A stretch of 64,000 nucleotides of DNA from Squalus acanthias (taxonomy: Eukaryota). The notes beneath the pieces were generated by a model. That model was not told the DNA's origin and made no database searches. It saw only the letters and a list, made by a program, of their open reading frames with translations. The DNA lies in NCBI GenBank assembly GCA_030390025.1, contig JASTWF010000334.1, positions 310,001-374,000 on the forward strand, in the 5' to 3' direction. The position numbers were made by a program, and so were the translations under genes. Positions 13,624 to 43,264 of this stretch are shown piece after piece; position 1 is the stretch's first letter, and the number at the start of each line of letters is the position of its first letter.

Positions 13624-13703
13624 CTAACTACAGGCCAGTTTGTAGGAGCAAACGAAAGGATGTTGTTGATCACAGGGCACATCATTCCAAAGACCTCGAG
13701 TAG
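13624..13703 (-). CDS. Lectin A coding exon 5
   Basis: Acceptor TTTCTTTCTCCAG; encodes PTRGLWNDVPCDQQHPFVCSYKLACS-stop (WND motif). Confidence 0.92.
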
Positions 13704-16700
13704 CTGGAGAAAGAAAAATTGAAACTAACATTTACCCATCAGTGAATCAGACAGCTATTTCTCGAACTGTTTCATACTTTCTCTTTTGGGAGAGTCAGGC
13801 CGCGATTTCCCCGACCTGGGCGGGTCGGTGGCGGGTGCGGTTGGTGGCGGGTGACGGCCTCCGAAATGACTTTCCCCAATTGGACTTGTTAAGCCCCGCC
13901 CAGCGAGTTTCCCGGCCAATTAACGGACGTGGGTCTGATGACGTCATTTGATGACCATCATCAGCCGTGTTCCTTTACGGGACCATACGCAAATTTACTT
14001 TGACATTTGTGCTGTCTGTGTTCTACAGCATTGAGGTGCTGCAAACACTGACAAGCATTGCAGAGAGGTGCACGGCTACACCCAAGCTCTCCAACTCTCA
14101 CAGCACACAGGGAGGTTCTCTTCCCTTCCAATGGGTGGAAGAGACCTCCCCAGGAGATCAACGCAGCCTGGTTGCACATTGCACAGGAGGGCACAAGCAG
14201 GGATGTCATCAGGAGGACCAGGCTGCAGTGGCACAAACCTTTCAATGATCTCAGTAGATCTCTCATCACATCCCCATCACTCTGCCTTCCCTCCCTACTC
14301 CTGCACATCCTTACTCACACCAACATTCCTTGCACCTCCACCCATCCCTCTCTATCTACATTATCACTTCCCCATCACACCCTCATCCTAGTGCAATCAT
14401 ACCAACTGACAACACACAAGGGTAGGCAGTTGTGTGTTTTAGCCAATGTTCATGTGAAGTTTCTGTTAATGTGGTGTCAAACATTGAAATCTTTATTTTC
14501 AACACTTTCCGTTTGTGAACAGATTCGTGTGCACCTTTGGAAGTGGCTTAGTGAGTTGCAGTGAATGGTGAGACATAACGGTACCCCCTGCAATGCTGAT
14601 GAGTGTGAAAGGAATGGCTTGAGCATTGTAGGGATGATTTATGGTGTTGGTGTGGGGTGGTGCCAACCTGGCACATCATGTGGCAGCCAGGGTGTGCAAC
14701 ATCAAGTGAAGTAAATCTGGCCATGGTGAGGCCTTCCCTGGTGTCGGGTGCTTATGCCTTCTGTCCTGTGCAGCATCAGGTGATTGCGGAGAAGGTTGGT
14801 GTGGTTGTTCATCCTGCTGGTGTGCCTGGCGATGTTGATGTTGCAGCTGATCATGATGAGATTCTGAAGACCAAGGTGAGAGAGTATAAACCGTACCAAT
14901 GTTGATGGAATAGATGGCAGGTGAACTGGAGATGACAGAAGCGATCTGTCAGTGGTGAGAGAGGTTGTTCCAGTGAGGTGACGCTGGATAGAGAGTTTGC
15001 TCCAAACACTTGCAACCTGCATAAAGCACAATCTGTCTTCCAAATGCAGTAAGCAACAGCTTCTGAGCTTGGAAAGTGAACAGCTGTGAGATGGGAGCTT
15101 TAATAGCACATTTCAAGCTGTCAAGTAATGAGATGATTCCATGGTCATTCAACTCCAGCCCAGCTTAGCAGACGTGATCCATGAGAAGCGTGGACCTCGT
15201 GGGCGAGTTGGTAAATTAAAAAGGTGAGCTCGAAATTGTTGTTAATCCTCTGTTAGCAAGGTCAGAATGACCTGAATTGCCTTCCTCGCCGCTGCAGGTC
15301 GGGTCTGCTCAGCGCTGACAGACCCGACATTTGGTAAAGGCATGTGGCACGGGTTGACAGCGGGGTCCCGACCTGCTGTAGTAAAAACTTTCCCACCTGA
15401 CCCACCACCGATCCCGCCCGCTGACCCCCCGGAAAACTCCCCTCTCAGTGTCTGTGATCCTCTAATTTTACCCATCTCTTGATCCATGAATTCACCTTGT
15501 AAATAAAGTGAGGCACTTCCTGTTGTTTTGCCATGTGCACTCAGTCAGTGTGTGTCTCACTGAAATCTGGAAACCTCACAATATTCAGTGGGGTTTGGAC
15601 AGTTCCTGACTGAAGATTGCGAGCTCACCCTGGGCTGGGTTTCCCAGTGTGGGGTGGACAGCAAGGCCTCACCACCAGGGCTAAACAGTCACCTACCCCA
15701 CTGCACGGACTTCACACGATTGGAGCAAAGGCTGTGATTTCTGGAGTTAGAATCTCTGTGTCCGGATTATATCATTTTAAATCTGGGAATTGAACCCCCT
15801 GTGGAAAGGGGGCGGGGTGTTTGGTGTATCAGTAAAGTGAGGGCCTGGATACAGGAAGGTTAAATAATTTTCTGAGAACGCTGTGTAAACACAGAGTGGA
15901 ATCCTGTCCAATGGGAGTACGGCTCCAGCCATGTCAGGAACAGCTCATTCAATGTGGGCCAATTATAAGGTTGGTCTCACTTTAGCCTCCACACTGCAGA
16001 ATCCAAAGAGATGGTCAATTGAGTGGAGGGAGAAACTGCAGTGTTACATCCAGTGTACGTTCCTCGATCTGCAGTGTTACACCCAGTGTACGTTCCTCTA
16101 TCTACAGTGTTACACCCAGTGTATGTTCCTCTCTCTGCAGTGTTACACCCAGTGTACGCTCCTCTATCTAGTGTTACACCCACTGTATGTTCCTCTCACT
16201 GTAGTGTTACACCCAGTGTACGTTCCTCTCACTGTAGTGTTACACCCAGTGTACGTTCCTCTATCTCCAGTTTTGCACCCAGTCTATGTTCCTCTATCTA
16301 GAGTGTTACACCCAGTGTATGTTCCTCTATCGACAGTGTTACACCCAGTGTACGTTCCTCTATCGACAGTGTTACACCCAGTGTACGTTCCTCTATCGAC
16401 AGTGTTACACCCAGTGTACGTTCCTCTATCGACAGTGTTACACCCAGTGTACGTTCCTCTATCGACAGTGTTACACCCAGTGTACGTTCCTCTATCGACA
16501 GTGTTACACCCAGTGTACGTTCCTCTATCGACAGTGTTACACCCAGTGTACGTTCCTCTATCGACAGTGTTACACCCAGTGTACGTTCCTCTATCGACAG
16601 TGTTACACCCAGTGTACGTTCCTCTATCGACAGTGTTACACCCAGTGTACGTTCCTCTATCGACAGTGTTACACCCAGTGTACGTTCCTCTATCGACAAT

Positions 16701-19700
16701 GTTACACCCAGTGTACGTTCCTCTATCTGCAGTGTGTGACCCGTGTTCATTCCTCCATTAAACAGCTTTACTTGGAAGGTGGCTGCAAAAGATGCAGAAG
16801 TTGAGCCCTGCCAAAGTCTAAAACTCAACCACACTGAGTCCAGTTAGAAGCTCATTAATCTCAGTCGACCTATCCAGTCGTCTGCATTTAATTTCCAATA
16901 AAAACACTGTCACACTTTGCAGCATCAACTTACGGTAATTTAAATGCAGACAGTCCTCTATTCCTTGAGCATTATTGGGTTCACCCGTACCCCAGTTTGT
17001 AAAATCTGTTTCCGATCCATCAGTCCAAAGGAAAGCCTCCTCCTGTGGAAATATAAAATCATAATTTAAACATGTATATTTCTGTTACAATAAACAATTT
17101 GTGATATAACTTCTCAGACAACGTTACCTTGTAGATGTCACTCAAACCGAGCCAAGTATAAGGATTTGATGCGTCTTTTGCTTGAATCACCCGTTCGAAT
17201 GAACTCGTTCTGTTCCTGCGAGTGTATGGAGGCAAGACGGCCGCCTGGAGCCAGTGCTCGGCAGTGCAGCTTTAAATAAAAATAAAACAGACCATTTGTT
17301 GTTTTTCACCTTGTTACATTGATTATATTCAGTTCTGTCGCTCCATGTAATATGTTTAATGTTGAAACATTCTATTCTTTTGCTAAAGGTGAACAATAAA
17401 ACATACAACCTGCTGTTATAAGTCCATGTCGTCCCAATATGGACTGACTCCAAACTTCACTGTGGATTAAGTGAATAGTGGGACGCTGGCACTGGATACT
17501 GGGGAACAATCTCATGGGGGTTCAATGGCTTCAAACCACCAGATTGAAGTTTCAGCAGCTTCTGTGCATCAGCTGACACTGGGCTGGTATTGTGGTCGAA
17601 TGTTCTGTGGGCTATCTGGCATTGTTTCCCCTCTTCTCCCCAACCTTTATCCATACAGCTGCTGTCAATACAGATGTTGCAGTCCACATCACTGCAAAGT
17701 GACCACGCCCACACTGACAGATTTATCTGGCCATCCTGTGCCATGTGGGAAGTCCAGGATGCTTCTCGTGTCCTGGACAACCACATGAGCAGGAAGTGTC
17801 GTCAGCTGGAGGAGCTCGAGCTCCGGGTTTCAGAGCTTGAGCAGCGGCTGGCGTCACTGCAGTGCGTCCGTGAGGCTGAGAGCTATGTGGATAACACGTT
17901 TCAGGAGGTGGTCACCCTGCAGCTTAAGAGTTAGCAGGCAGAGAGTTAATGGGTGACGGACAGACAGACAAGGAGGACCAGGCAGGTAGTGCAGGAGTCC
18001 CCTGAGTGCCTCATTTGATGATCCTTCTAACATATTGTCCCTCCTCACAGCTGTAATTGTTAATTTAACCAAAATTGCGTCCAGTCCCCGCCCCACCCCC
18101 CGTCCTTTTATATTCACCTTTAGAACTCGTTGGAAAACCCTGTAATCAGGAATGTTGAGCTACCATTCCTACTCTCCTTTCAGCCATGTTTCAGTAATAG
18201 CTATGATATCATACTTCCACACGTTTATCTGGTGAATACTGGTGAGAGTGATGGTTCCTCTGGGGAGTACAGCCAGAGCACCATAGGTGGCTCAGCTGTA
18301 TGGCGGGGAGTGGGTGGAGGAGGATGATCAGAAAAGCAATAGTGATGGGGGATTCATTAGTTAGGGGAACAGACAGGCGTTTCTGCACCGCAGACGTGAT
18401 TCCAGGATGGTATGTTGCCTCCTTGGTCAAGGATGTCACTGAGTGGCTGCAGGACATTCTGAGGGGGGAGGGCGAACAGCCAGAGGTCGTAGTCCATATC
18501 GGTACCAATGACGGAGGAGGCGGACCTGTGTGGGAGCGGCAGCGGGACCTGAGAGAAGGCGGAGCGGCCATAAAAGAGCGTGGCAGAGGAGGCCCGACAC
18601 CGGAGTGCTGCAAGTTGGGAAAGAGTCCCGAGAGCGGGAGCAATCAAACAACAACAACTTCGAAACCACTAAAGTGACATCACAACCAGGGAAGGAGCTG
18701 ATTGGTAAGTAGGACCTGGTGAGTATTTCTACAGTCCAGTCATTGAAGTAAAAGTAAGGTTTCTAGTTTAGAGTAAGTAGTGTTTAAAGGGAAGTAAGGT
18801 CCCTAGTGTATTTAATATTCTTTAATTTAAAGGAAGTAAAGGAAGTAAGTTAAGGGTAGGACATGGCAGGGCAGCTCGGCAGCATGGAGTGCTCCTCCTG
18901 TGCTATGTTGGAAGTCAGGGACACTTTTGGTGTCCAGGACGAACACATGTGCAGGAAGTGTCTCCAGCTGCAGGTACTCGAAATCCGCGTTTCGGAGCTG
19001 GAGCTGCGGCTGGAGTCACTGTGGAGCATCCGCGAAGCTGAGATCTTCGTGGATAGCACGTTTAACGAGGTGGTCACACCGCAGGTGAAGAGTGCACAGG
19101 CAGACAGGGAATGGGTGACTGCCAGACAGAGTAAAAGAACTAGGAAGGTAGTGCAGGAGTCCCCTGGGTCCATCTCCCTCTCCAACAGATTTTCCGTTTT
19201 GGATACTGCTGGGGGAGATGGTTTCTCAGGGGAATGCAGCAAGAGCCAAGTCCGTGGCACTATGAGTGGCTTAGCTGCATAGGAGGGGAGGAAAAAGAGT
19301 GGGAGAGCAAAAGTGATAGGGGATTCTATCTTAAGGGGAACAGATAGACATTTCTGTGGCCACAGACGTGACTCCAGGATGGTATGTTGCCTCCCTGGTG
19401 CCAGGGTCAAGGATGTCACTGAACGGCTGTAGGGCATTCTGAAGGGGGACGGCGAACAGTCAGAGGTCGTGGTTCACATTGGTATCAACGACGAGGGATG
19501 AGGTCCTGCAACAAGAATTTAAGGAGCTCGGTAGCAGATTAAAAAGCAGGACCTCAAAGGTTGTAATCTCTGGATTACTCCCTGTGCCACGTGCTAGTGA
19601 GTATAGGAATAGGAGGATAGAGCAGATGAATGTGTGGCTAAAGAGTTAGTGCAGGAGGGAGGGCTTTAGTTTCCTGGATCACTGGGTCTGCTTCTGGGGA

Positions 19701-22700
19701 AGGTGGGACCTGTACAAGTCGGAGGGGTTGCACCTGAACCGGAACAGGACCAACATCCTTGCGGGGAGGTTTGCTAGTACTGTTGGGGGGGGTTTAAACT
19801 AACTTGGCAGGGGGATGGGATACGGAGTGGAGCTATAGTAGGGGGTGATGCACAGCCAAATATAGAGGAAAAAACAAGTCAGCCTGGAAGGCAGAGCAAA
19901 TATGTAACGGCACAAGGGAGTATGGCGAGGCTGGATGGCATTTATTTTAATGCAAGGAGTCTTACGAGTAAGGCAGATGAATTGAAGGTGTTGATGAACA
20001 CATGGGAGTATGATATTGTTGCTGTCACAGAGACATGGTTGAGGGAGGGGCAGGACTGGCAACTCAATATTCCGGGGTATAGAATCTTCAGGCGAGACAG
20101 AGGAGGGGGTGTCGCAATATTAATCAAGGAGTCAATTACTGCTGGAAGGAGGGATGATATCTTTGCAGGTTCCTCTAATGAGGCCATATGGGTAGAACTT
20201 AAAAACAAAAAGGGGGCAAGCACTTTGCTGGGAGTGTACTATAGGCCCCCAAACAGTCAGGGGAGATAGAGGAACAGATATGTAGTCAAATCTCAGAGAA
20301 GTGTAGAAATAATAGGGTAATAATAGTAGGGGATTTCAACTTCCCCAATATTAACTGGGACAGTCAGAGTGTGAAAGGCTTAGAGGGCGCGGAATTCTTA
20401 AAGTGCATCCAGGAGAGCTTTTTGAGCCAGCATGTAGCAAGTCCTACAAGAGAGGGGGCAGTACTGGACCTAATTCTTGGGAATGTAGCCGGGCAAGTGG
20501 TAGAAGTGTCAGTAGGAGAGCATTTTGGTGACAGTGACCATAATTCGATGAGATTTAAGGTAGTCATGGAAAAGGACGAAGATGGACTGGAAAAAAAGGT
20601 TCTAAATTGGGGGAAGGCCGATTTTAATATGATAAGGCAGGATCTGGCCAAATTGGACTGGGATCAGCGACTTGTAGGAAAATCCACATCAGAGCAGTGG
20701 GAGTCTTTCAGAAAGGAAATAGAGAGAGTACAATGCCAACATGTTCCCGTAAAGGTCAAGGGTGGGATCAACAAGCCCAGGGAACCCTGGATTTTGTACA
20801 ATCTTACTAACTTACTTCTAATTACAGATCAGATGTGACTGGACAATTCAACTTGTGTGTGACTGGGCTATTCAACTTGTGTGTGACTGGGCTATTCAAC
20901 TCCGGCGAGGCGGAGGAGTCAAGAGGCGGCGGCGACCAGGTAGGCCCACAGAGGCGGCGGACCTTGGTGGAGCGGCTGCGGCGAGGCGGAGGAGTCAAGA
21001 GGCGGCGGCGACCAGGTAGGCCCACAGAGGCTTTTAAAGTGCGGGACGCAGTGGTTGCTGGGTAGGTGATTAATTTTTACCTGTATATAAGTTGGGCGGT
21101 TCCTAAACCCGAGACACTACACTTGTAGTGTCCCCCACCCTTCCTCCTCCTCTAACCTAAAGAAGGTGAGTGACTATTAGGTAAGCTCTTTTTTGTTCTA
21201 GTTTAATCTGCAAGTTAGCTGGAGGGGATGGCAGGGGAGGCAGTGAAATGTTCCTCCTGCAGAATGTTTGAGGTGAGGGACGCCGTAGGTGTCCCTGCTG
21301 ATTACACCTGTGGGAAGTGCACCCATCTCCAGCTCCTCGAAAACCGTGTTAGGGAACTGGAGTTGGAGCTGGATGAACTTCGGATCATTCGGGAGGCAGA
21401 GGAGGTCATAGATAGAAGCTTCAGGGATGTAATTACTCCAAAGCATGAAGATAGATGGGTGACGGTGAGAGGGGCTAGGAGGAAGCAGTCAGTGCAGGGA
21501 TCCTCTGTGGTCGTTCCCCTCAGTAACAGGTATACCGCTTTGAATACTGTTGAGGGGGACGACTTACCAGTGGTAAGCCACGGTGACCGGATCTCCGGCG
21601 CTGGGTCCGTCCCTGTGGCTCAGAAGGGAAGGGGAGAGAGCAGGAGAGCAATAGTTATTGGGGACTCAATAGTCAGAGGGACAGATAGGAGGTTCTGTGG
21701 CAGCAAAAGAGACTCACGGATGGTATGTTGCCTCCCGGGTGCCAGGGTCCATGACGTCTCGGACCGTGTTTTCAGAATCCTCAAAGGGGAAGGGGAACAA
21801 TCACAAGTCGTGGTACACATCGGTACCAACGACATAGGTAGGAGAAGGGATGGGGATTTAAAACAGGAATTTAGGGAGCTAGGTTGGAAGCTGAGAGCCA
21901 GTACAAACCATGTTGTAATTTCTGGTTTGTTGCCGGTGCCACGTGCTAGCGAGTTGAGGAACAGGGAGAGAGTGCAGATAAACACGTGGCTGCAGGGATG
22001 GTGTAGGGGGGAGGGTTTCAGTTATGTGGATAACTGGAGCACATTCTGGGGAAGGTGGGACCTGTACAAACAGGACGGTTTGCACCTGAACCAGAGGGGC
22101 ACCAATATCCTGGGAGGGAAATTTGCTACGGCTCTTCGGGGGGGTTTAAACTAATTTGTCAGGGGGATGGGAAAAAGGGCTGTAGTCCACGAGCCAGTGG
22201 TGAGTGTAGGGAGGTACTGAGGAGGGTATCAAGGTCGCAGGAATGTACCGGCAGACAGGAAGATGGCTTGAAGTGTGTCTACTTCAATGCAAGGAACATC
22301 CGGAATAAGGTAGGAGAACTTGGAGCGTGGATTGGTACTTGAGACTACAATGTGGTGGCCATTACGGAGACATGGTTAGAACAGGGACAGGAATGGTTGT
22401 TGGAAGTTCCGGGGTATAGATGTTTCAGTAAGAGTAGGGAAGTTGGTAAGAAAGGTGGAGGAGTAGCATTGTTAATCAAAGATAGTTTAACAGCGGCAGA
22501 AAGGCAGTTCGAGGGGGATCTGCCGTCTGAGGTAATATGGGCTGAAGTTAGAAATAGGAAAGGAGCGGTCACGTTGTTAGGAGTTTTCTACAGGCCCCCA
22601 AATAGTAATAAAGATGTGGAGGAAGAAATTGCAAAGCAGATTATGAATAGGTGTGGAGGTCACAGAGTAGTTGTCATGGGTGACTTCAACTTTCCAAATA

Positions 22701-25700
22701 TTGATTGGAACCTTTATAGGTCAAACAGTTCGGATGGGATAGTTTTTGCACAGTGTGTGCAGGAGGGTTTCCTGACACAATATGTGGATAGGCCGACAAG
22801 AGGTGGGGCCACGTTGGATTTGGTACTGGGTAATGAACCGGGCCAAGTGTTTGATTTGTATGTGGGAGAGCACTTTGGAGATAGTGACCACAATTCGGTA
22901 ACTTTCACTATTGCAATGGAGAGGGATAGGGCCATACGGCAGGGCAGGGTTTATAATTGGGGGAGGGGTAATTATGATGCGAGTAGGCAAGAATTAGGGA
23001 GTATAAGATGGGAACAGAAACTATCAGGGAAAGGCACAAACGAAAAGTGGAGCTTTTTCATGGAGCAATTACTGCGTGTCCTTGATAGGTATGTCCCTGT
23101 CAGGCAGGGAGGAAATGGCCGAGTGAGAGAACCATGGTTCACAAAAGAGGTTGAATGTCTAGTCAAGAGGAAAAAGGAAGCGTATGTAAGGATGAGAAAA
23201 CAAGGTTCAGTTGGGTCGATTGAGGGGTACAAGGTAGCAAGGAATGAGCTAAAAAAAGAGCTTAGGAGAGCTAGGAGGGGGCATGAGAAGTCCTTGGCGG
23301 GTCGGATCAAGAAAAACCCCAAGGCTTTTTACTCTTATGTGAGAAATAAAAGAATGACCAGGGTGAGGGTAGGGCCGGTCAAGGACAGTAGTGGGAACTT
23401 GTGCATGGAGTCAGAAGAGATAGGAGAGGTGATGAATGAATACTTTTCGTCAGTGTTCACCGAGGAGAGGGGCCATGTTCTTGAGGATGAGAGTGTGATA
23501 AAGGTGGATAGGCTGGAGGTGGTAGATGTTCTGAGGGAAGATGTTTTAGCAATTTTGAAGAACCTGAGGGTCGATAAGTCCCCTGGGCCAGATGGGATAT
23601 ATCCTAGGATTCTTTGGGAGGCAAGGGAGGAGATTGCAGAGCCTCTGGCTTTGATCTTTGGGTCCTCACTGTCCACGGGAATGGTGCCAGAGGACTGGAG
23701 AGTGGCGAATGTTGTTCCTCTCTTCAAGAAAGGAAATAGGAATGACCCTGGTAATTATAGGCCGGTTAGTCTTACTTCGGTGGTTGGTAAGATAATGGAA
23801 AAGGTCCTGAGGGATAGGATTTATGACCATTTGGAAAGGGGCAACTTAATCAGGGATAGTCAACACGGATTCGTGAAGGGTAAGTCTTGCCTAACAAATT
23901 TGATTGAATTCTTTGAGGAGGTAACTAAGTGTGTAGATGAAGGTAGAGCAGTTGATGTCGTATACATGGATTTTAGTAAGGCGTTTGATAAGGTTCCCCA
24001 TGGTCGTCTCATGAAGAAAGTAAGGAGTTGTGGGATAGAGGGAAATTTGGCCGATTGGATAAGTAACTGGCTATCTCATAGAAGGCAGAGGGCGGTGGTG
24101 GATGGAACATTTTCGGACTGGAGACCAGTTACCAGCGGTGTGCCACAGGGGTCGGTGCTGGGTCCTCTGCTGTTTGTGATTTTTATCAATGACTTGGAGG
24201 AGGGGACTGAAGGGTGGATCAGTAAATTTGCTGATGACACCAAGATTGGTGGAGTAGTGGATGAGGTGGAGGACAGTTGTAGGCTGCAAAGAGACATTGA
24301 TAGGATGCAGAGCTGGGCCGAAAAATGGCAGATGGAATTTAACCCTGATAAGTGCGAGGTGATTCATTTTGGTAGGGCAAATTTGAATAAGGATTACAGG
24401 GTCAACGGCAGGGATTTGAGGAACGTGGAGGAGCAGAGGGATCTGGGGGTTCATATCCACAGATCTCTGAAGGTTGCCACTCAAGTGGATAGAGCAGTAA
24501 AGAAGGCCTATGGTGTGTTGGCGTTTATTAACAGAGGGTTTGAGTTTAAGAACCGTGAGGTTATGCTGCAACTGTACAGGACCTTGGTGAGACCACATTT
24601 GGAATATTGTGTGCAGTTCTGGTCACCTCACTATAGGAAGGACGTGGAAGCATTGGAAAGAGTGCAAAGGAGATTTACCAGGATGCTGCCTGGTTTGGGG
24701 GGGAGGTCTTATGAGGAAAGATTGAGGGAGTTGGGGCTTTTCTCTTTAGAGCGGAGGAGGATGAGAGGCAACTTAATAGAGGTTTATAAGATGATGAGGG
24801 GGATAGATAGAGTGGATGTTCAGAGACTATTTCCTCGGGTAGAGGCAGCTGTTACAAGGGGGCATAACTATAAGGTGCATGGGGGGAGATATAGAAGGGA
24901 TGTCCGAGGTAGATTCTTTACTCAGAGAGTGGTTGGGGTGTGGAATGGACTGCCTGCTGTGATAGTGGAGTCGGACACTTTAGGAACTTTCAAGCGGTTA
25001 TTGGATAAGCACATGGAGCACACCAGAGTGATAGGGAGTGTGATAGCTTGATCTTGGTCTCGGACAATGCTCGGCACAACATCGAGGGCCGAAGGGCCTG
25101 TACTGTGCTGTACTGTTCTATGTATCTATGTAACTTGTGTGTGGCATTGTTTGTAATTGAGACGATGGGAGTAGAGAGTCCATGTGAGATAGCCAGGTCG
25201 AGGGGGTAGCTGTGAATATGGCCACTTGTGTGAGAGAGTACAACGCCAACATGTTCCCATAAAGGTCAAGGGTGGGACCAACAAGCCCAGGGAAGCCTGG
25301 ATGTCAAGGGATATACAAGAATGGATTAGGAAAAAAAGGGAGGCTTTTGGCAGATACAAAGGACTATAAACAATGGAAGCCCTACAGGAGTATAGAAAGT
25401 GCAGGGGGGTACTTAAAAAAGAAATTAGGAGAGCGAAGAAGGGGCATGAAAAAACACTGGCGGGCAAAATAAAGGAAAATCCCAAGGTGTTTTATAAGTA
25501 TATTAAGGGCAAGAGGATAACCAGGGAAAGAGTAGGGCTCATTAGGGACCAAAGTGGCAATCTGTGTGTAGAGCCGGAAGATGTGGGTGAGGTTTTAAAT
25601 GAAAATTTTGCATCTGTGTTCACTGTGGAGAAGGATGTTGTAGGCATAGAAATCAGGCAGGGGGATTGTGATATACTTGAACAAATTAGTATTGAGAGGG

Positions 25701-31700: not shown

Positions 31701-34700
31701 TGATTAGCACCCCATCCACCACCTTAAACATTCACTCCCTCCACCACCGGCGTACCGTGGCTGCAGTGTGTACCATCTACAAGATGCACTGCAGCAACTC
31801 GCCAAGATTTCTTCGGCAGCACCTCCCAAACCCGCGACCTCTTCCACCTAGAAGGACAAGGGCAGCAGGCACATGGGAACACCACCATCTCCAAGTTCCC
31901 CTCCAAGTCATATACTATCCTGACTTGGAAGTATATCGCCATTCAGTCATCATCGCTTGGTCAAAATCCTGGAACTCCCTCCCTAACAGCACCTTGGGAT
32001 CACCTTCACATGGACTGCAGTGATTCAAGAAGGCGGCTCACCACCACCTTCTCCAGAGCAATTAGGGATGGGCAATAAATGCTGGCCTTGCCAGCGATGC
32101 CCACATCCCATGAACGAATAAATAAAAAATTATTTGGCCTGGAGAAGGTGGTGGTGAGCCGTATTCTTGAACCACTTCAGTCCTTGTGGTGAAGGTACTA
32201 TGGGGGAAAAATTTGTTTACTTTGCGCCTCCCGTTAGCGCCGTAAGAGGGCGCTAATGGGGAGCAAAGCAATTAGCGCCTGGGCGCGGCACCGCCAGCGC
32301 CTCCCGTGAAATTCAGCTGGAGTTTAGCAGCGGTGGTAACTGTTAGCGCCCCGCAGCGCTGCTCCGCCAGCAATGACGTCATCGCCGTGCGTAGTGCCCC
32401 GCTCGCGCCCCGGCCGCGATCTTCGGGGGCACCCCCCGACATACCGCCAGGACAAAGCAGCCCACTTGATTAGCACCCCATCCAGGGGTGCCTACCTGTG
32501 GCCGTCCCCAGCCTCCGTGAAGCACCCCCCGTGGTGGGGGCCGGCTGCTCTCCGTGAGCCTGGCAGTCCTCTTGAGTGCCGGGCTCGTTTGCCGGCACTC
32601 CCGATCCCTGGTGGCCCAGCTGGGCGTCGGGACGCGCGGTGCCAGGCCCCTCCCCTTTAAGAAGGAGAGGAAGGCCTGCAGTACCACGGCGTGACATTCC
32701 CTCACAGCGCCCCAAGAGGGAGGTGGGGCGCTTCCAGTAGCACCCCGCTTCCCTTTTGGGATGCTACCATTCAACTTCGGCCGCAGGGGTGCTAATTTTT
32801 TCAGGGTGCTAAAAGTAGCGCCCCGACGAAGTTAGCGCCCCAAAGGGGGCACGACTCAATTTTTCCCCCTATATTTATAAAAGAATTAGATGAAGGAATA
32901 GAGAGCCGTAGATCTAAGTTTGCTGATGACACTAAGTTAGGTGGCACAGTAAATAGTGTAGATAAAAGTAGAAAGTTGCAAAGGGATGTTGTTAGATTAG
33001 GTGAGTGGGCAAAACTGTGGCAGATGGAGGTCATCCACTTTGTCCGAAGAAAGATAGATCAGAATATTATTTAAATGGTGAGAAGCTAGGAAGTATGGAG
33101 GAGCAGCAGAGAGATTTAGGAGTCCAAGTACAGAAATCACTGAAAGCTAGTGGACAGGTACAAAAAAAATTAAAAAGACTAAAGACTAAAGGCTAAAAGC
33201 ACAGATTCTCCAGAATGATACTGGGGTTAAAAGGGTTAAATTATGAGGACAGGTTGCTCCGACTAGGCTTGTATTTCCTGAGTATAGAAGATTATGGTGC
33301 GATCTAATTGAGGTGCTTAGGATGATTAAAGGAATTGCTCAGGTAGATAGAGATAACCTTAAAATTAGAGCTAGGCTGTTCAGGGGTGATGTTAGGAAGC
33401 ACTTGTTCACACAAAGGGTAGTGGAAATCTGGCACTCTCTCCCAAAAAGCTGTTGAGGCTGTAGTCAATGGAAAATTAGGCAAGGGTATTAAGTGTTATG
33501 GAACCAAGGCGGGTAGATGAGTTCAGATAAAGATCAGCCATGATCTATTTGAATGGCGAACAGGTGCGAAGGGATGAATGGCCTACTTGTGTTCCTATGT
33601 TCCACACATCACCCCTGTGCGCGCTGAGCTACATTGGCTACCGGTCCAGTAATGCCTCGATAATAAGATTCTCACCCTCGTTTTCAAATCCCTCCATGGC
33701 CTCGCCCCTCCCCTATCTCTCTAACCACCTCCAAATGCTTTGTATTTGTCTTCACAAAAAACATTCTGGAAATAGTGTGGAATCAAGGGTCCAGTGAGAA
33801 TGAAGAACTTTAAAGAAATTAATATTAGTAAAGAAATAGTACTGCAGAAATTAATGGGGCTAAAAGCCAACAAATCCCCTGACATGATGGCCTACATCCT
33901 AGGGTTTTAAAAGAGGTGGTTACAGAGATAGTGCATGCATTGATTTTGATCTTCCAGAATTCTAGATTCTAGAATGGTCCCCGTGGATTGGAAGGTAGCT
34001 AATGTAACCCCGCTATTCAAGAAAGGAGGAAGGGAGAAAACAGGGAAATATAGGCCAGTTAGCCTGACATCAGTAGTTGGGAAAATGCTAGAATCTATTA
34101 TTAGGGATGTGGTAACAGGGCACTTACAAAATCAAAATATGATTGGGCAGAGTCAACATGGATTTCTGGAAGGGAAATTGTGTATGACAAATCTAATTGA
34201 GTTTTGAGGTTGTAACTAGCAGGCTAGATCAGGGGGAAACCAGTGGATGTAATGTATTTGGATTTTCAGAAAGTATTCGATAAGGTGCCACACAAGAGGT
34301 TATTACACAAAATTAGGGCTCATGGGATTGGGGGTAATATATTAGCATGGATTGAGGATTGGTCAACGGACAGAAAACAGAGAGTAGGAATAAATGGGTC
34401 ATTTTCGGGTTGGCAGGCTGTAAATAGAGGGGTACCCCAAGGATCAGTGCTTGGGCCTCAGCTACTTACAATCTATATCAATGACTTAGATGAGGGGACT
34501 GAGTGTAATGTATCCAAGTTTACTGACAATACAAAGCTAAGTGGGAAAGTAAGTTGTGAGGAGGATGCAAAGAGGCTGCAAGGGATAAAAACAGGTTAAG
34601 TGTGTGGGCAAGAACATGGCAGATGGAGTATAATGTGGAGAAAAGTGAAGTTATCCACTTTGGTAGGAAAACAGAATATTTATTAAATGGTGAGAGATTG

Positions 34701-37700
34701 GGAAATGTTGGTGTTCAGAAGGACCTGGCTTTCCTTGTACACGAATCACTGAAGGTTAACATGCAGGTACAGCAAGCAATTAGGAAAGTAAATGATATGT
34801 TAGCCTTTATTTCAAAAGGATTGGAGTGTAAGAGGAAAAAATTCTTAGTGCAATTATATAGGGCCTTGGTGAGACCACACCTGGAGTACTGTGTACAGTT
34901 TTGGTCTCCTTACCCAAGGTAGGACAGACTTGCCTTAGAGGGAGTACAAAGACTGATTCCTGCAATGGAGGGGATTGTCCTATGAGGAGAGATTGAGGAG
35001 ACTAGGCCTATATTCCCTAGAATTTAGAAGAATGAGAGGTGATCTCAATTAAACATATAAAATTCTTACAGGGCTTGACAGGGAGAATGTTTACCTTAGT
35101 TGGGAAGTCTTGAACTAAGGGTCACAGTCTCAGAATAAGGGATTCGCCATTTAGGACTGAGATGAGGAGAAATTTATTCACTCAAAGGGTTGTGAATCTT
35201 TGGAATTCTCTAACCCAGAGGTCTGTGGATGCACAGTCGTTGAGTATATTCAAAGCAGAGAGCGATAGATTTTTTTGGATATTAAGGGAATCAAGGGATA
35301 TGGAGACAGTGGGAAAATTGAGTTGAGGTAGAAGATCAGCCATGATTGTACTGAATGCCGGAGCAGGCTTGAAACGCCAAGTGGCTTACTCCTGCTCCTA
35401 TTTCTTATGTTCTCATGTTCTTATGTTCTTACAACCAGCCCTACAACCCTCGCGATCTCTGCACTCCCCCAATTCTGGCTTTTTGCACAACTGTGATTTT
35501 CACTGCTCAACCATTGGTGGCCGTGCCTTCAGCTGCCTTGGCCCAAGCTCTGTAATTCCCTCCCTAAACCTCTCTGACTCTCTTTACTCCTTCAAGCCAT
35601 TCCTTAAAACCTACATCATTGACCAAGCTTTTGGTCGCCTACCCTGGTGTAACTGGGTGGAGCCTGTACGATGCAAGCTCTGCCCATTTGTAGCTGAATT
35701 TTGCATGAGGGTCCTACAATCGGCGTAGGACCCGATTTGCATATTTAAGTAGGTTCAAGCCTGTTTCAGGCGGGCTGCTCGCCCATTTTCAGGCCGGGCT
35801 GAATATTGCGTCGGGTGGGCTTTGGGCATCAAAGGGGCGATCGAGGTGTCCTCCTACCGCCTGTTTCTTAAGTGCAAAATGGACAGGTGTGAGTTGACTT
35901 TCTCCCCCAATAAATTAAATTCCATTTTTATTTAATGACATTCTGGAATTTGTCCATTGTTCTGTGAAAGTTAAGTGAGTGGCCTTCATTTTTCTTTACC
36001 TATATTTTAACAGTTTTCGCATTATAAATGTTGACGTAAAGGAACAAGAAGTGCATACTATATACACGGTTTTAGTAATATATGGATCATTTCTTCCTTC
36101 AAATATTTAAAAGGGAATGTGTGGCCAACGTGCTCTCCTGAAAGTAGTAATACAAGTAGAATAAATATCATGGAAGTCCTAAACAGTCTAAAAGGGCTCA
36201 AAATAAATTAGCCCCAGGTATACAATTTATCTTGCTAATATCACATGGGGGAATTTAAATATTTAAATGCAAATAGATGAACATTGCCCAATAGGAAGGG
36301 AGCAAATGAATTGACCTGGGGAGACATTACAGACCCATTCAATGAAAGAGACCTGGGAAGACCATTCAATGTAAAACCAATAAACATTGGATGCATCTTG
36401 TCGGCTTTTGAAAATGTCTGAAATCTTAGCTGAACGGATACAGGTTTTTCACAACTATCTGCCCTTTCAATGGGCTGACAGCAGATCCTTTAAATGGACC
36501 TTGTCATCTTTGATCTGAAGAGCAGGATCTGGAGCCCAATCCTGTCCCCACCAAACTTCCACACAATGCATTTTGCAGAAGGTTTCACTGGATGGTGATC
36601 AGGACCAGGGAGTCGCGCTGATTTTACTCTTTTCTAATCCAGAGACACTCAGACCAGTTGTAACTCCCTCATCACTGTCCATGGATGAACCTGGGACCCT
36701 CCTTGTCTGTAGGGCTCATTGTCACAGTTCAGTGCCCTCAGTGTTTAATGTAGAATACAATGTAGACCATGTTACCCACTGATGGAACACACTGAGTCAA
36801 TCAGAACTGTCCAGATATAAACAAGAAGGTTCTTTCATTCTCTGTGTCTGGTCATATTTAGAAACACTGAGGAACAAAGCCAATAACTTAAAATGGAGAC
36901 TCCAGGGACTTACCTCAGCTTCTATCCAATTCTTTTTCTGAGGGACAAACTGGTAACAATAACCAAAATAAAATCTGCTGTTGAAACAATATCCGCTCCG
37001 AAGGACGTCACGTTTTTCAAGGTCCTGATCCTGATCCGTCTGTGTCTCCAGTTGCCCATTCTCCAATGTGCTACTCGGAGTATCAAAACCTGCAGTTAAA
37101 GGGAATTAGACTAAACAAGCTGCAATAGTCACAACAGCAATCCCCAAACCTTCAAAGCTTCTGATTTGTGAGGCTAGAAATTGATGGGCAGATGGTGGGC
37201 GGGGCCTGCACAGGGGGCGGGGCTTGCTCAGGGGTCATGGCTTTTCACCTTCCTGCACAAACCTGTCCTCACACACCATGTTTGTTTACATAGAATTATA
37301 TAGAAGTTACAGCACAGAATCAGGCCATTTGGTCCAACAAGTCAATGCCACAGGAGCCTCCTCCCTCTCTATTTACTTCCTCTAACTCTATCAGCATATC
37401 ATTCTATTCCTTTTCCCCTCATGTGCTTATCTAGCTTCACCTTAATGCATCTATGCTGTTCGCCTCAACTACTCCATATTGTAGCAAGTTCCAGATTCTC
37501 ACCACTCTCTGGGTAAAGAAGGTTCTCCTGAAATCCTTATTGGATTGATTGGTGACTATCTCATATTTATGACTCAAACTGGAATTTTTCATCAACTTTC
37601 CTTCAAATTTCCACACTTCCTTTGTCTTCACATGGTCCATTTCCGACTCTTCCCTTCCTTGGCTTCTCCATCTCCATTTCTGGGAATAGGCTGTCAACCA

Positions 37701-40700
37701 ATATCTATTATAAACCCACTGACTCACACATCTTTCCCCCCCTTTCCCTTTCAGCATTCCGAAAGGACCGTATCCTCACTACACATTGGTCCACTCTTTC
37801 ATCACTCTAGAAAGCTCCAAACACTTGCAGAAACGTACACAGAGCCAGTAGAAATTAACCAGCAACTAACCTGAAAGTGGTTGATGAGCCCTTTAAATAT
37901 CGCTGGTGGGGCTCCTTGCAGCAGCTGAACGCATGTTCAGCTCTGCGAGGTTAACACAGGGCGTTAGTTCCAGGATGACAATGGCAGTGCTGGTGTCAAA
38001 TCAGCGTGCAACGCTGATTGATGTCACAATCTGGTTACTCTACATACTTCTGGCGCCGCTCCCAATGCCGCGCTAACGCTGTCACCAAGGTGGCATCCGG
38101 TGCGGCCCACACCAGAATTGTGCGTGCGCGCGGCTCGGACACCATTTCAACCAAAAGTGGCACCCGTAGCGCCCAAACAACGAGAGCTATGCAATTGAAT
38201 TTTTATGTCCTAGACTACCCAACCAACGGAAATAGTTTTTATCTACCCTATCAGTTCTTCTTAATATCTTCAAAACTTCGATCAAATCAGCCCTTAATCT
38301 TCTAAATTCCAGGGAATACAGCCTAAGTTTGTCTAATCTCCCGTCGTAATTTAACCCTTGGAGTGCACGTATCACTCTGGTACATCTACAATGCACTCCC
38401 TCCAAGACTAATACATCCTTCCTATGGTGTGGTGCCCAGAACTGAACACAGTACTGCAGGTGTGGTCTAACCAGGGCTTTGTATCGATGTAGCATAACTT
38501 CTACCCCCTTGTGGCTGCTGTGTTTCCGACATTACAACAGTGACTGGACTTCAAAAAGTACTAGCCCGCTTCTACCTCCTTCCCAAGATCCACAAACAGG
38601 ACTGCCCTGGTAGACCCATCGTTTCAGCCTGCTCTTGCCCCACAGAACTTATCTCTTCCTATCTCGACTCTATTTTTTCTCCCCTTGTCCAGTCTCTTCC
38701 CACCTACATCCGCGATTCCTCTGACGCCCTCCGCCACTTTAACAGTTTCCAGTTTCCTGGCCCCAACCGCCTCCTTTTCACCATGGACGTACAATCCCTC
38801 TACACCTCCATCCCCCACCAGGATGGCCTGAGGGCGCTCCGCTTCTTCCTTGAACAGAGGCCCAACCAGTCCCCATCCACCGCCACCCTCCTCCGCCTGG
38901 CTGAACTTGTTCTCACATTAAACAACTTCTCCTTTGACTCCACTCATTTCCTCCAAATCAAAGGTGTTGCTATGGGTACCCGCATGGGTCCTAGCTATGC
39001 CTGCCTTTTCGTGGGATATGTGGAACACTCTTTGTTCCAGTCCTACTCGGGTCCCCTCCCTCACCTCTTTTTCTGGTACATTGACGACTGTATCGGTGCC
39101 GTTTCCTGCTCTCGCCCTGAACTAGACAATTTCATTCACTTTGCCTCCAATTTCCACCCTTCCCTCACCTTCACATGGTCCATCTCCGACTCTTCCCTTC
39201 CCTTCCTCGACTTCTCCGTCTCCATCTCTGGGGATAGGTTATTGACCAACATTCACTACAAGCCCACTGACTCCCACAGCTACCTGGACTACACTTCCTC
39301 CCACCCCGCCTCCTGTAAGGACTCTATTCCCTTCTCCCAGTTTCTCCGTCTCCGCCGTATCTGCTCCAACGATGCCACCTTCCATACCAGTGCTTCCGAC
39401 ATGTCTTCCTTTTTCCTCAACCGAGGATTCCCCTCTACCGTGGTCGACACGGCCCTCGACCGTGTCCGTTCTATCTCCCGCACTTCTGCCCTCACACCGG
39501 CCCCTCCCTCCCTCCCGGAACCACGATAGAGTTCCCCTTGTCCTCACCTTTCACCCCACCAGCCTCCACATTCAACGGATCATCCTCCGCCATTTCCGCC
39601 ACCTCCAACGTGATCCCACCACCAAACGTATCTTCCCCTTACCTCCCCTTTCAGCATTCCGTAGGGACCGTTCCCTCCGAGACACCTTAGTCCACTCCTC
39701 TATCACCCCCAGCACCCCTTCCCCCTCACCCGGCACCTTCCCGTGCAAGCGCAGGAGATGCAACACCTGCCCTTATACATCCCCCCTTCCCACTCTCCAG
39801 GGCCCCAAACACCCCTTCCAGGTGAAACAGCGATTTACTTGCACTTCTTGCAATCTAATATACTGTATTCGCTGCTCACGATGTGGTCTCCTCTACATTG
39901 GGGAGACCAAACGCAGATTGGGTGACCGCTTTGCGGAACACCTCCGTTCAGTCCGTAAGGGTGACCCCGAGCTTCCGGTCGCTTGTCATTTTAATTCACC
40001 CCTCCATTCCCACTCAGACCTCACCGTCCTCGGCCTCGTGCATTGTTCCACGGAAGCTCAACGTAAGCTCGAGGAACAGCACCTCATCTTTCGTTTAGGC
40101 ACTTTACAGCCTTCCGGACTCAATATCGAGTTCAACAATTTCAGATCATAACCTCGGCCCCTACCACATATGTATACATTTTATCCACCCTTTTGGTTCG
40201 TGCCTTTTTCCTTTTTTTTCTCTCTCTCCCCCTACAGCAGCTGTCTCTCATTCTGTCAGCATTTCACACCTCACCTTTTGTTTCTTAACCTGTCTCTACT
40301 TACCATAGTTATTCCTCACCCCAGCCTCCCCCTTGCATTTTTATCTGTTTCATTTCCTGCTCTATTCTCAATTCTGACGACGGGTTGTGACCTGAAACGT
40401 TAACTCTGCTCCTCTCTCCACGGATGTTGCCTGGCCTGCTGAGTTTTTCCAGCGTTTTCTGTTGTTGTTTCGAAAAGTACCACATTGGCTGTAAAGCGCT
40501 TTGGGACGTCTGGTGATTGTGAAAGGCGCTATATAAAGGCAAGACTTTCTTTCTTTCTTCTTTCTATTCTAGTCCTCTAGATATAAAGGCCAACATTCCA
40601 TGTGCCTATTTGATTATTTTCTGTACCTGATCATGACATTTTTACAATATGTACATGAACCCCTAAGTTTATTTGGACCTCTACTGTTTCTAAATTTTTA

Positions 40701-43012
40701 CCATATGGAAAGTTAATTGGATATAAGACACTATATCGCCCCCAAGCCCACGGAAAGACAATGGGTTATTAGACACTATCCCGCCCCCTGGGGTTATTAG
40801 AAACTATCACCACCCCGCCCCCGGGTTTATTAGACACTATCACCACCCCGCCCCCGGGTTTATTAGACACTATCACCCCCCCACCCCCGGGGTTATTAGA
40901 CACTATCCCCGCTCCCCCCCCGGGGTTATTAGACACTATCCCCCCCCCCCCCCCCCGAGGTTATTAGACACTATCCCCCACCCCCGGGGTTATTAGACAC
41001 TATCCCCCCCCCCCCCCCCGGGGTTATTAGACACTATCCCCTCCCCCCCCCCCCGGGGTTATTAGACACTATCCCCCCCCCCCCCCGGGGTTATTAGACA
41101 CTATCCCCCCCCCCCGGGGTTATTAGACACTATCCCCCCCCCCCCCCCCCGGGGTTATTAGACACTATCCCCCCCCCGGGGTTATTAGACACTATCCCCC
41201 CCCCCCGGGGTTATTAGACACTATCCCCCCCCCCCCCCCCGGGGTTATTAGACACTATCCCCCCCCCCGGGGTTATTAGACACTATCCCCCCCCCCCCCG
41301 TGGTTATTAGACACTATCCCCCCCCCCGGGGTTATTAGACACTATCCCCCCCCCCCCCCGGGGTTATTAGACACTATCCCCCCCCCCGGGGTTATTAGAC
41401 ACTATCCCCCCCCCCCGGGGTTATTAGACACTATCCCCCCCCCCCCCGTGGTTATTAGACACTATCCCCCCCCCCCCCGGGGTTATTAGACACTATCCCC
41501 CCCCCCCCCCCGGGGTTATTAGACACTATCCCCCCCCCCCGGGGTTATTAGACACTATCCCCCCCCCCCCGGGGTTATTAGACACTATCCCCCCCCCCCC
41601 CGGGGTTATTAGACACTATCCCCCCCCCCCCCCCCGGGGTTATTAGACACTATCCCCCCCCCCCGGGGTTATTAGACACTATCCCCCCCCCCCCCCCGGG
41701 GTTATTAGACACTATCCCCCCCCCCCCCCCCCCGGGGTTATTAGACACTATCCCCCCCCCCCGGGGTTATTAGACACTATCCCCCCTCCCCAATGGTTTA
41801 CTCAGCTGAGCCGTGAATGAAATCCTCTCGAGTGAGCTCAACGCCAAGTGAGGAATTCACTGGATCATTTTCTGTTGGCCGGTGTGATGTTAACGAGCGG
41901 CACAAATTAATAATAAACTATGTCCCCAAATTGGCGCAGCCTCCCGACACATTCCAGCTTTAACTGAACAGGATCTGGACACAGGATCCGGGTCCACCAG
42001 GGGTGGGGATTCCAGGCCAGAGGAGCAGGCTGGACCCCCGAAGATCGAACAGTGGGGGTGAAGGATACACAAGAATGTTTGTTTATGAGAAGGAAGTGGG
42101 CGAACCCATGAGCAGGTGAGTGAGATTAGACTGGGTGCTTTAATAAAGGGTATGGGGAGTGAGCAGGAGAGTGGGATTAGACTGGTCGGGATAATAAAGT
42201 GTATGGGGAGTGAGCAGGTGAGTGAGATTAGACTGGTTGCTTTAATAAAGGGTATGGGGAGTGAGCAGGAGTGGGAGTAGACTGGTTGGGATAATGAAGG
42301 GTATGGGGAGTGAGCAGGAGAGTGGGATTAGACTGGTTGAGATAATAAAGTGTATGGGGAGTGAGCAGGAGAGTGAGATTAGACTGGTTGTGATAATAAA
42401 GGATATCGGGAGTGAGCAGGAGAGTGAGATTAGACTGGCTGGGACATTAAAGAGTATGGGGATTGAGCAGTAGTGTGGAATTGGACTGGGTGGATATTAA
42501 AGGGTATGGGGAGTTGAGCAGGAGACTGGGCTTAGACTGGCTGGAATATTAAAGGGTATGGGAAGTGAATAGGTGAGTGGGATTAGATTGTGTGGGATAT
42601 TAAAGGGTACGGGGAGTGAGCCGGAGAGTGGGATTGGAATAGGTGAGAGACTGAAAGTTATGGGATGTTCGCAGGAGAGTTTGATTAGAATGGGTGGGAT
42701 ATTTGAGGGTATGAAGAGTGACCAGGAGAGTGAGATTAGCTTGGGTGGGCTATTAAGGAGTATGGGGAGTGGGCAGAGAATGGAATTGGACTGGGTAGAA
42801 TATCAAAGCTTTGCAAAGTTAGATAGTTGCCCATTTTAGGATATTCCTTCAGGTGCCACCCCTTTCTATTCCCTCTAATTTAGACAGCAGGTAATCCACG
42901 AACTTTCCACCTCACAGCATTAACCTGTCCTCACACACCATGTCTGGTTGACCCTACCTGCCACATCACTGACGAGCAATGCACTCAGCACCAAAACCGT
43001 CACCAGCATCAT
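13624..43012 (-). CDS. Secreted prepro C-type lectin gene A (REG/ladderlectin-like single CTLD); coding exons 43012-42958, 37089-36914, 17269-17128, 17042-16934, 13703-13624; 186 aa if the +1 frameshift is corrected
   Basis: All introns GT-AG with compatible phases. Product: MMLVTVLVLSALLVSDVAG-FDTPSSTLENGQLETQTDQDQDLEKR-DVLRSGYCFNSRFYFGYCYQFVPQKKNWIEAELHCRALAPGGRLASIHSQEQNEFIRT/VIQAKDASNPYTWLGLSDIYKEEAFLWTDGSETDFTNWGTGEPNNAQGIEDCLHLNYPTRGLWNDVPCDQQHPFVCSYKLACS. Confidence 0.9.
13798..15444. mobile_element. Degenerate Harbinger derivative in the last intron of lectin A
   Basis: TSD TCA; Myb/SANT-like relic on + (INAAWLHIAQE...RRTRLQWHKPFNDL). Confidence 0.7.
16038..16735 (+). repeat. 33-bp minisatellite (CAGTGTTACACCCAGTGTACGTTCCTCTATCGA)n, about 21 copies
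   Basis: Tandem unit read directly; explains the repetitive 11-aa ORFs. Confidence 0.95.
16934..17042 (-). CDS. Lectin A coding exon 4
   Basis: CAG|EEAFLWTDGSETDFTNWGTGEPNNAQGIEDCLHLNY|GTAAGT; EPN sugar-binding motif. Confidence 0.92.
17128..17269 (-). pseudogene. Lectin A coding exon 3 with a +1 frameshift
   Basis: 142 bp between phase-0 sites (141 expected); LHC...LASIHS in one frame and WLGLSD in the next; CCC run at 17190-17192. Confidence 0.85.
21228..22154 (+). CDS. CR1 ORF1p: zinc finger, coiled coil, SGNH esterase
   Basis: CSSC...CGKC; LRVRELELEL-type heptad region; IVIGDS; HIGTND; DGLH. Confidence 0.92.
   Translation: MAGEAVKCSSCRMFEVRDAVGVPADYTCGKCTHLQLLENRVRELELELDELRIIREAEEVIDRSFRDVITPKHEDRWVTVRGARRKQSVQGSSVVVPLSNRYTALNTVEGDDLPVVSHGDRISGAGSVPVAQKGRGESRRAIVIGDSIVRGTDRRFCGSKRDSRMVCCLPGARVHDVSDRVFRILKGEGEQSQVVVHIGTNDIGRRRDGDLKQEFRELGWKLRASTNHVVISGLLPVPRASELRNRERVQINTWLQGWCRGEGFSYVDNWSTFWGRWDLYKQDGLHLNQRGTNILGGKFATALRGGLN
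22155..25051 (+). pseudogene. CR1 ORF2p (APE endonuclease + RT), open except one TGA at 22340-22342
   Basis: YFNARNI...ITETW, GDFN, SDHN; PQGSVLGP, FADD; 899 aa open downstream of the stop. Confidence 0.9.
29010..29518 (+). mobile_element. L2-type LINE 3' fragment
   Basis: Ends AAAGGCGCTATATAAAT...GTTGTTG; related pieces at ~33600-33735 and ~35430-35640. Confidence 0.65.
31440..32129 (+). mobile_element. 3' fragment of the second LINE family, inserted within an antisense copy of the same family
   Basis: ORF EYSPFAW...IQDKAARLI...HSLHHRR; A-rich tail; minus-strand tail pieces at ~31388-31436 and ~32130-32198. Confidence 0.75.
32202..32869. mobile_element. Harbinger-derived MITE
   Basis: TIRs GGGGGAAAAATT / AATTTTTCCCCC; TSD TAT. 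Confidence 0.88.
36914..37089 (-). CDS. Lectin A coding exon 2 (propeptide and start of the CTLD)
   Basis: CTGCAG|...DQDQDLEKR...C...GYCYQF...KNWIEAE|GTAAGT. Confidence 0.92.
37290..38510 (-). mobile_element. CR1, Penelope and Harbinger-end fragments in lectin A intron 1
   Basis: CR1 3' region on the minus strand; 37580-37810 resembles the Penelope ORF; ~37860-38210 resembles 57930-58200 inverted. Confidence 0.65.
38562..40472 (+). mobile_element. 5'-truncated Penelope-like element (RT + GIY-YIG), one frameshift near 39500
   Basis: GVAMG, YIDD; NLIYCIRCSRCGLLYIGET; 8-bp TSD AAAAGTAC (38554-38561, 40473-40480) within an L2-tailed fragment. Confidence 0.93.
40370..40405 (+). ncRNA. Minimal hammerhead ribozyme motif (slightly degenerate)
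   Basis: CTGACGA-c-GGGT-tgtg-ACCT-GAAACGTT-AACT. Confidence 0.6.
40765..41790 (-). repeat. G-run minisatellite (GATAGTGTCTAATAACCCC-Gn), left-arm copy
   Basis: Roughly 30-35 units with variable C-runs on +. Confidence 0.95.
42108..42797 (+). repeat. 51-bp diverged minisatellite, about 13 copies
   Basis: Unit GGGAGTGAGCAGGAGAGTGGGATTAGACTGGTCGGGATAATAAAGTGTATG. Confidence 0.9.
42958..43012 (-). CDS. Lectin A coding exon 1 (signal peptide)
   Basis: Exon starts at 43040 after TTTCAG; MMLVTVLVLSALLVSDVA|GTAGGG. Confidence 0.9.
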
Positions 43013-43118
43013 GTCTGCAGTGAAGTTCCTTTCCTCTCACCTGAAACACAAGGAAAAGATTCAACATTAGTGTCAAGATTTCAAATTAAAGATTGGGATT
43101 TCCTGCTCCCATTCCTAC

Positions 43119-43264
43119 CTCTCTTTCTCTCCCAGTTGTCTGATGTGATGAGGTTTCGAGTGTCACTGCATATATACATCGCAGATTGTGGAGACCTTTG
43201 GAACCATTGAAATCAGATCCAATTGGCTGGACCATCAATGATCTCAAAATTACTGCTGGCCAAT
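43119..43264 (-). promoter_or_regulatory. Lectin A promoter and short non-coding first exon
   Basis: TATA-like 43170-43176; CCAAT 43260-43264; donor GAG|GTAGGA at 43119; same layout in copy B. Confidence 0.65.

Follow-up and report, generated by a model that had tools for sequence, protein, structure and literature searches.

Among the soluble lectins of fish, ladderlectins form a ladder of disulfide-linked oligomers. Ladderlectin has been called teleost-specific in the accessible text of PMC12006334. HjCL, a skin C-type lectin of Heterodontus japonicus, is credited with broad sugar binding and blood coagulation in the title of its report (pmid 25433861) and is termed antimicrobial in the available part of a review. 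In the REG3 lectins of mammals, an 11-residue prosegment is cut by trypsin at an Arg-Ile bond, not at a dibasic site, and inhibition operates via local acid-base contacts that need only three local basic residues (accessible portions of PMC2643518).

We analyzed a 64,000-nt stretch of the Squalus acanthias genome (the window) containing a gene for a predicted secreted lectin with a single C-type lectin domain (CTLD), gene A, and the first part of a second copy, paralogue B. The coding exons of gene A were located by a six-frame motif scan and by reading of the DNA. The features of the two genes are as follows.

43,176-43,171 (minus strand): TATA-like box of gene A, within 43119..43176
43119..43176 (minus strand): region of the TATA-like box and of a short non-coding first exon of gene A, donor at 43,119; exon start placed by inference
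42958..43040 (minus strand): exon 1 of gene A, 5' UTR plus putative signal peptide; 55 coding nt at 43,012-42,958, phase 1
36914..37089 (minus strand): exon 2 of gene A, 176 nt, phase 0; acidic segment, KR at 37,015-37,010, CTLD cysteines 1 and 2
17128..17269 (minus strand): exon 3 of gene A, 142 nt; frame shifted by one extra base near 17,197, with the resulting stop at 17,140-17,138
16934..17042 (minus strand): exon 4 of gene A, 109 nt, phase 1; EPN at 16,982, then Glu/Cys
13624..13703 (minus strand): coding part of exon 5 of gene A, 80 nt; WND at 13,689, tail Cys at 13,632, stop at 13,624
13504..13509 (minus strand): polyadenylation signal AATAAA of gene A
45235..46165 (plus strand): upstream block of paralogue B, with a non-coding exon (donor at 45,911) and exon 1 (from the ATG, 46,018-46,072)
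61410..61585 (plus strand): exon 2 of paralogue B; KR block shared with gene A, TAA stop in frame at 61,550

The five coding exons of gene A (55, 176, 142, 109, and 80 nt) lie on the minus strand and are bounded by GT-AG. A 78-nt intron (43,118-43,041) separates the non-coding exon from the ATG exon, and RefSeq models of the shark homologues P0017, P0018, and P0019 cross the same intron; counting the non-coding first exon, gene A has six exons. An in-frame stop precedes the ATG at 43,012 in the 5' UTR. The encoded N-terminus is hydrophobic and signal-peptide-like, and it is followed by a 26-aa segment with seven acidic residues that ends in KR, the next residue being Asp. When the break in exon 3 is read as X, the product displays a WIG-like motif and the six-Cys pattern of the long form of C-type lectin domain (Cys 53/63/80/155/171/179), and a seventh Cys lies in the C-terminal tail. 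As judged from the primary structure, the Ca2+-site ligands are complete, comprising EPN, the downstream Glu, and WND; the splice sites and the poly(A) signal are likewise intact. Moreover, gene A differs at only 2 of 29 conserved columns, and other members vary as much. Three of its exon pieces matched Lectin_C (PF00059) below the cut-off, homologue P0003 matching at E 2.2e-21, and the Pfam search returned nothing for exon 2 of either paralogue. The original prediction had described a hidden five-exon gene with a signal peptide, an acidic segment of about 26 residues ending in DQDQDLEKR, EPN and WND motifs, and a seventh, C-terminal Cys. Each of these protein features was recovered, as were the five coding exons with their GT-AG ends; the sixth, non-coding exon had escaped it.

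To place the gene among known proteins, exon 2 alone was searched against 1.84 billion representative proteins. Twelve proteins were retrieved, and the 10 that were checked are shark entries of RefSeq that carry the name lectin-like or one close to it; an earlier search with exon 2 against longer proteins had given no match. A profile of the 12 sequences then retrieved 82 proteins, 78 of which come from sharks or rays, with many per species. Gene A, 186 aa with X at the break, shows identities of 59% to Heptranchias and 57% to Heterodontus proteins. A tree was built from 67 of the 97 rows, with incomplete rows dropped and REG and snake sequences left out, and is midpoint-rooted with few outgroups; in it, gene A falls inside an elasmobranch clade (100/99) and, with moderate support, within a shark subgroup (97/73). 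By its sequence, gene A is a member of a multi-copy elasmobranch family of secreted single-CTLD proteins already annotated in RefSeq, and the proposal of a secreted, Ca2+-dependent mannose-type single-CTLD lectin with a prepro-like leader is supported for that family. The homologue search and CTLD tree that had been suggested as a check thus set gene A among elasmobranch lectin-like proteins, with ladderlectins on a separate branch; the existing annotation of the family had been overlooked.

Within the family, the sugar motif is EPN in 34 of 67 members and QPD in 20, and the tail Cys is shared by gene A and 36 of the 61 elasmobranch homologues that are complete. The predicted model of the Heterodontus homologue P0003 (not of gene A) contains a confident CTLD, with residues 5-47 disordered (pLDDT <50); its nearest solved folds are snake galactose lectins, CEL-I, the aggrecan CLD, and lithostathine. 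A mineralization or venom role, as the automatic names dromaiocalcin-like, lectoxin-like, and snaclec-like might imply, was rejected, these being best-hit labels that are inconsistent between close paralogues. Four skate and ray paralogues (P0083, P0085, P0086, and P0077) have lost the sugar motif, are strongly cationic (net +10 to +25), and have no KR; these would suit direct killing better. The literature searched, with subscription journals largely outside and supplements outside its scope, yielded no description of the family or of KR processing and no N-terminal data on cleavage after KR. The accessible parts of PMC9316650, PMC4768133, PMC8455134, and PMC2440524 hold nothing on the family or the KR leader, and catshark clec3a, in the accessible part of PMC13188829, is a different gene.

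The intact prepro-lectin that the original prediction read from these exons is not what they encode as written. With the end of exon 2 and the start of exon 4 both in phase 0, exon 3 needs a length divisible by three; at 142 nt, or 47 codons plus 1 nt, it is one base too long. Its first part, the CTLD helix region, and its second part, with the WLG motif, read in different frames, and tblastn with homologues located the frame change at 17,198-17,193. When spliced as written, the frame is lost after the EFI motif, and 120 residues are followed by the stop at 17,140-17,138, ahead of EPN. Every other AG/GT pair fails to hold the two halves of exon 3 in frame together, and tblastn found no second exon 3 in the 64,000-nt window, including the 19.6-kb intron. 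The extra base near 17,197 lies outside any homopolymer. In the family, skipping of this exon in frame is annotated, as RefSeq isoforms P0002 and P0006 of shark homologues are without the exon-3 segment.

Sequencing runs were further used to evaluate this site. None of the 18 runs listed reached half of 38 sampled window words, the best share being 0.29, which indicates that the runs represent relatives or paralogues. Alignment of four runs to 16,760-17,500 gave 157 pieces, 32 of them listed, and all four runs omit one base at 17,197. Among the 32 listed pieces, all seven contigs that bridge the site by at least 31 bases, drawn from the four runs, fall short of the window by one base, and an eighth with a shorter overlap likewise lacks the extra base. 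The window base at 17,238 disagrees with nearly all of the aligned depth; thus, the gene A copy carries private changes. One DNA run places 109 contigs on 16,760-17,500, which points to a multi-copy family. Contigs from X1 and X9, runs that are only presumed to be RNA and whose contigs are uninformative on level or tissue, consist of exons only and cross the 85-nt intron with GT-AG ends. An X1 contig is identical to exon 4 over 108 of 108 bases, and a loose end of X1 contigs matches the first 30 bases of exon 5; loose ends of the presumed-RNA contigs also match a homologous exon 2 end. With regard to the splice junctions named as a check of the predicted gene, these exon-only contigs, which given the best word share apparently do not derive from this exact copy, connect exons 2-3, 3-4, and 4-5 in relatives. 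Altogether, the exons form a real structure that relatives splice, and the extra base is a private feature of the gene A sequence.

Paralogue B lies head-to-head with gene A. Its block at 45,235-46,165 is an inverted copy of 42,865-43,805 with 89.6% identity, and its exons after exon 2 fall outside the window. The TAA at 61,550 is a substitution-type lesion, independent of the gene A frameshift; the original prediction had noted neither of the two. As had been predicted, the DQDQDLEKR codons are the same in both paralogues; the longest identical run is 28 nt, a length reached in 2.3% of 20,000 shuffles, whereas the rate of non-coding divergence would give about 17%, and taken alone it is a weak signal of conservation. 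Pooled non-coding blocks of A and B differ by 6.4% over 1,329 sites. Past KR, 25% of non-synonymous sites differ, with 18 non-synonymous changes against 1 synonymous (P = 1.4e-6 versus non-coding; P = 0.06 versus site counts), and codons 8-26 differ by 4%, in a comparison of only 58 codons in which B is broken and the 8-26 boundary was picked post hoc. The first seven codons are also fast-diverging. The split of non-synonymous and synonymous changes before versus after KR gave P = 0.03, and dN/dS over all of exon 2 comes to about 1.1, which is not significant. These comparisons suggest that the post-KR sequence changes faster than the introns with the KR block kept, a mildly interesting signal; the flanks of the pair may have been homogenized by gene conversion. 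The non-coding flanks are 90-92% identical (42,865-43,805 versus 45,235-46,165; 36,335-36,884 versus 62,379-62,943) and exon 2 is 78% identical, a contrast that would reflect either accelerated change of the exon or gene conversion sparing it.

Intron 2 of gene A contains, in antisense, a near-intact LINE (21,219-25,048, plus strand) with an esterase-type ORF1 of 311 codons and an ORF2 encoding endonuclease and reverse transcriptase (RT) over 902 codons after one early stop; on our own reading, we take it to be CR1/L2-like. A 343-codon ORF at 38,498-39,526 (plus strand) has a weak RT match and is presumably Penelope-like. An LTR-retrotransposon pol in the order protease, RT, RNase H, and integrase occupies 795-4,764 (minus strand) over three open frames, and intron 1 of paralogue B holds a Harbinger-like DNA transposon (54,051-57,582) with a DDE_Tnp_4 ORF on the plus strand and a convergent Myb/SANT ORF on the minus strand. 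Mirror-image minisatellites with 29- to 33-bp units and poly-C/poly-G runs, about 85% alike, lie in intron 1 of both paralogues (40,763-41,791 and 49,853-51,779). A 33-bp minisatellite in intron 4 of gene A and three arrays of a 23-bp repeat downstream of the gene lie at 16,039-16,735, 1-535, and 10,333-10,757.

We then determined how widely the KR leader is shared. The leader could be parsed in 79 of 89 elasmobranch sequences, and a dibasic site was sought 5-9 residues ahead of the first Cys. Such a site is present in 34 of the 79 (12 of 21 shark and 22 of 58 ray sequences), compared to a mean of 5.75 and a maximum of 13 in 500 shuffles, the sequences being related and not independent counts. 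The remaining homologues comprise 6 with Arg plus an upstream basic residue, 24 with Arg only, and 15 without Arg. Four further shark homologues have R-x-x-R in place of the dibasic site, and R-x-x-R occurs in four of the seven listed Heptranchias copies that are without the K. On the tree, the KR label changes 12 times, at least 6 of which are forced, with EPN/WND kept where KR is lost; P0021, scored KR-less, is a partial sequence. In 13 shark sequences, mean identity is 0.56 over the 10 residues ending in KR, 0.51 over the CTLD, and 0.28 and 0.27 over the flanking segments; in 54 ray sequences, the KR block scores 0.37 versus 0.51 for the CTLD. An N-glycosylation sequon is found within 36 residues ahead of the first Cys in 42 of the 79 homologues. 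Because KR is kept in most shark homologues, convertase trimming after KR is plausible in the family. The proposed proprotein convertase-type site is commoner among sharks, with 12 of 21 dibasic and four more R-x-x-R, than among rays, most of which lack it, and the question of whether homologues lack KR was answered both ways, with 45 of the 79 lacking a dibasic site. Tilapia ladderlectins share the signal-acidic-EKR plan; therefore, this architecture is not specific to gene A.

We lean, by a modest degree, toward gene A having been disabled recently, as one copy in a cluster of secreted single-domain C-type lectins of elasmobranchs that evolves by birth and death. A doubtful but possible alternative is that the extra base arose through an error of sequencing or assembly, gene A being an intact, expressed 186-aa member. 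The reads come neither from this individual nor, apparently, from the exact copy, so that an assembly error is possible, and an error would agree with the intact signals of gene A, with the identity of exon 4 to the X1 contig, and with the exon-only contigs that join exons 2 to 5. It fits poorly with the position of the extra base outside a homopolymer, with the independent nonsense substitution in B, and with the mismatch at 17,238, which indicates private changes. The LINE in intron 2 keeps its 311- and 902-codon frames, which shows that indels are not rampant in the region; nonetheless, about 3.7 kb free of indels limits the indel rate only loosely. By judgement and not by measurement, we consider a real lesion in exon 3 roughly twice as probable as an error.

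For the acidic segment of intact members, two other readings were weighed. Its retention as a spacer or as a solubility or glycosylation arm, with KR an inherited motif, is rather unlikely; 45 of 79 homologues without a dibasic site, 15 of them without any Arg there, and the sequon in 42 of 79 would suit it, as would the lack in gene A of the P4 Arg that belongs to the furin consensus, whereas dibasic sites far above composition among these related sequences (34 versus a shuffle maximum of 13) and the EKR plan of tilapia ladderlectins argue against it. Improbable is a REG3-like switch in which the segment keeps the lectin inactive and KR cleavage turns on killing or binding. The leader of gene A is indeed acidic (net -7 ahead of KR), that of the P0003 model is disordered, the pro block is conserved with a fast-changing mature part, and in 29 KR members, which are related and partly incomplete sequences, a weak inverse correlation links pro and mature charge (rho -0.39, P = 0.036). 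However, the mature part of gene A is itself net -6 (pI 5.1), that of complete KR-bearing homologues is net positive in 2 of 25 and zero or below in 23, ray leaders are barely acidic (median -2), and KR was lost at least six times with EPN/WND retained; moreover, cleavage at a convertase site would precede secretion, leaving no on-demand control. The combination of a conserved pro block and a fast-changing mature part is a pattern of toxin and antimicrobial precursors. We give similarly little credence to an undescribed group of fast-diversifying shark and ray prepro-lectins of this precursor-like kind, in which a convertase cut at KR would switch on a hypervariable lectin domain for skin defense or clotting and gene A would be an intact or polymorphic member. 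Support for REG3-style activation is poor, since the mature part is acidic, the Ca2+-site ligands are full, and KR-less paralogues persist; the same holds for the protease-activated, REG3-like lectin of the original prediction, REG3 itself being cut at Arg-Ile. Net charge alone leaves local acid-base contacts possible, REG3 inhibition needing three local basic residues (accessible portions of PMC2643518) and gene A having two among the 12 residues after KR; hence, the switch is kept as an outside chance.

Under the disabled-copy reading, intact family members would lose the signal peptide after about Gly19, and the disordered acidic segment would be clipped after KR by a proprotein convertase as routine maturation. 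The 141-residue, net-acidic lectin domain would bind mannose/GlcNAc/fucose-type sugars via Ca2+ through EPN and WND, the tail Cys may cross-link lectin domains, and the protein could act as an agglutinin, an opsonin, or a clotting helper in mucus or plasma. Agglutination, opsonization, or clotting support is the likely family role by analogy with ladderlectins (accessible part of PMC10668809) and HjCL, the function being borrowed from other fish lectins. The gene A transcript, whose premature stop lies upstream of the last junction by about 120 nt, would be a target of nonsense-mediated decay; alternatively, it may yield a 120-aa stub without a sugar site. Skipping of exon 3 would keep the frame and lose part of the domain core.

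Gene A, damaged and from a lectin family that RefSeq annotates already, matters little by itself. The conserved KR block, on the other hand, predicts the N-terminus at which mature lectins of shark mucus and plasma would begin. Should cleavage gate activity, prosegment control of C-type lectins would extend from mammalian REG3 to cartilaginous fish via a different protease.

In comparison with known systems, the snake galactose-binding lectins (PDB 1jzn and 5f2q) and lithostathine (1qdd) are the top structural matches to the predicted model of the homologue (TM 0.81-0.87 by target, 32-35% identity). The likeness is at the level of the fold, with another sugar motif, and gene A bears no sign of a venom role. 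REG3A and RegIII-gamma (HIP/PAP) resemble gene A as secreted single-CTLD proteins with an acidic N-terminal segment; nonetheless, their prosegment has 11 aa compared to the 26-aa segment ending in KR, the mature part of gene A is acidic, and REG3 is a weaker match (E 3.7e-14 versus 6.8e-24 for the best single-domain match). Teleost ladderlectins and AFP-like soluble fish lectins differ in being about 33% identical and outside the elasmobranch clade of the midpoint-rooted tree with its few outgroups, whereas tilapia ladderlectins share with the family a signal peptide, an acidic segment, EKR, and a single CTLD. The three CTLD introns of gene A sit where the accessible part of PMC514892 describes them for AFP-like, group VII, and EMBP genes. 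HjCL is, like the family, a secreted C-type lectin of a shark, a likeness drawn from its title and the description in the review. The closest counterparts are the RefSeq elasmobranch proteins named lectin-like, C-type lectin-like, or ladderlectin-like (for example, Heptranchias XP_067861502.1 and Heterodontus XP_067915857.1; 57-59% identity), which occur in several copies per species and share the signal peptide, acidic segment, KR, EPN/WND, and tail of gene A; their models are full length, whereas gene A is frameshifted and paralogue B carries a stop, as sequenced.
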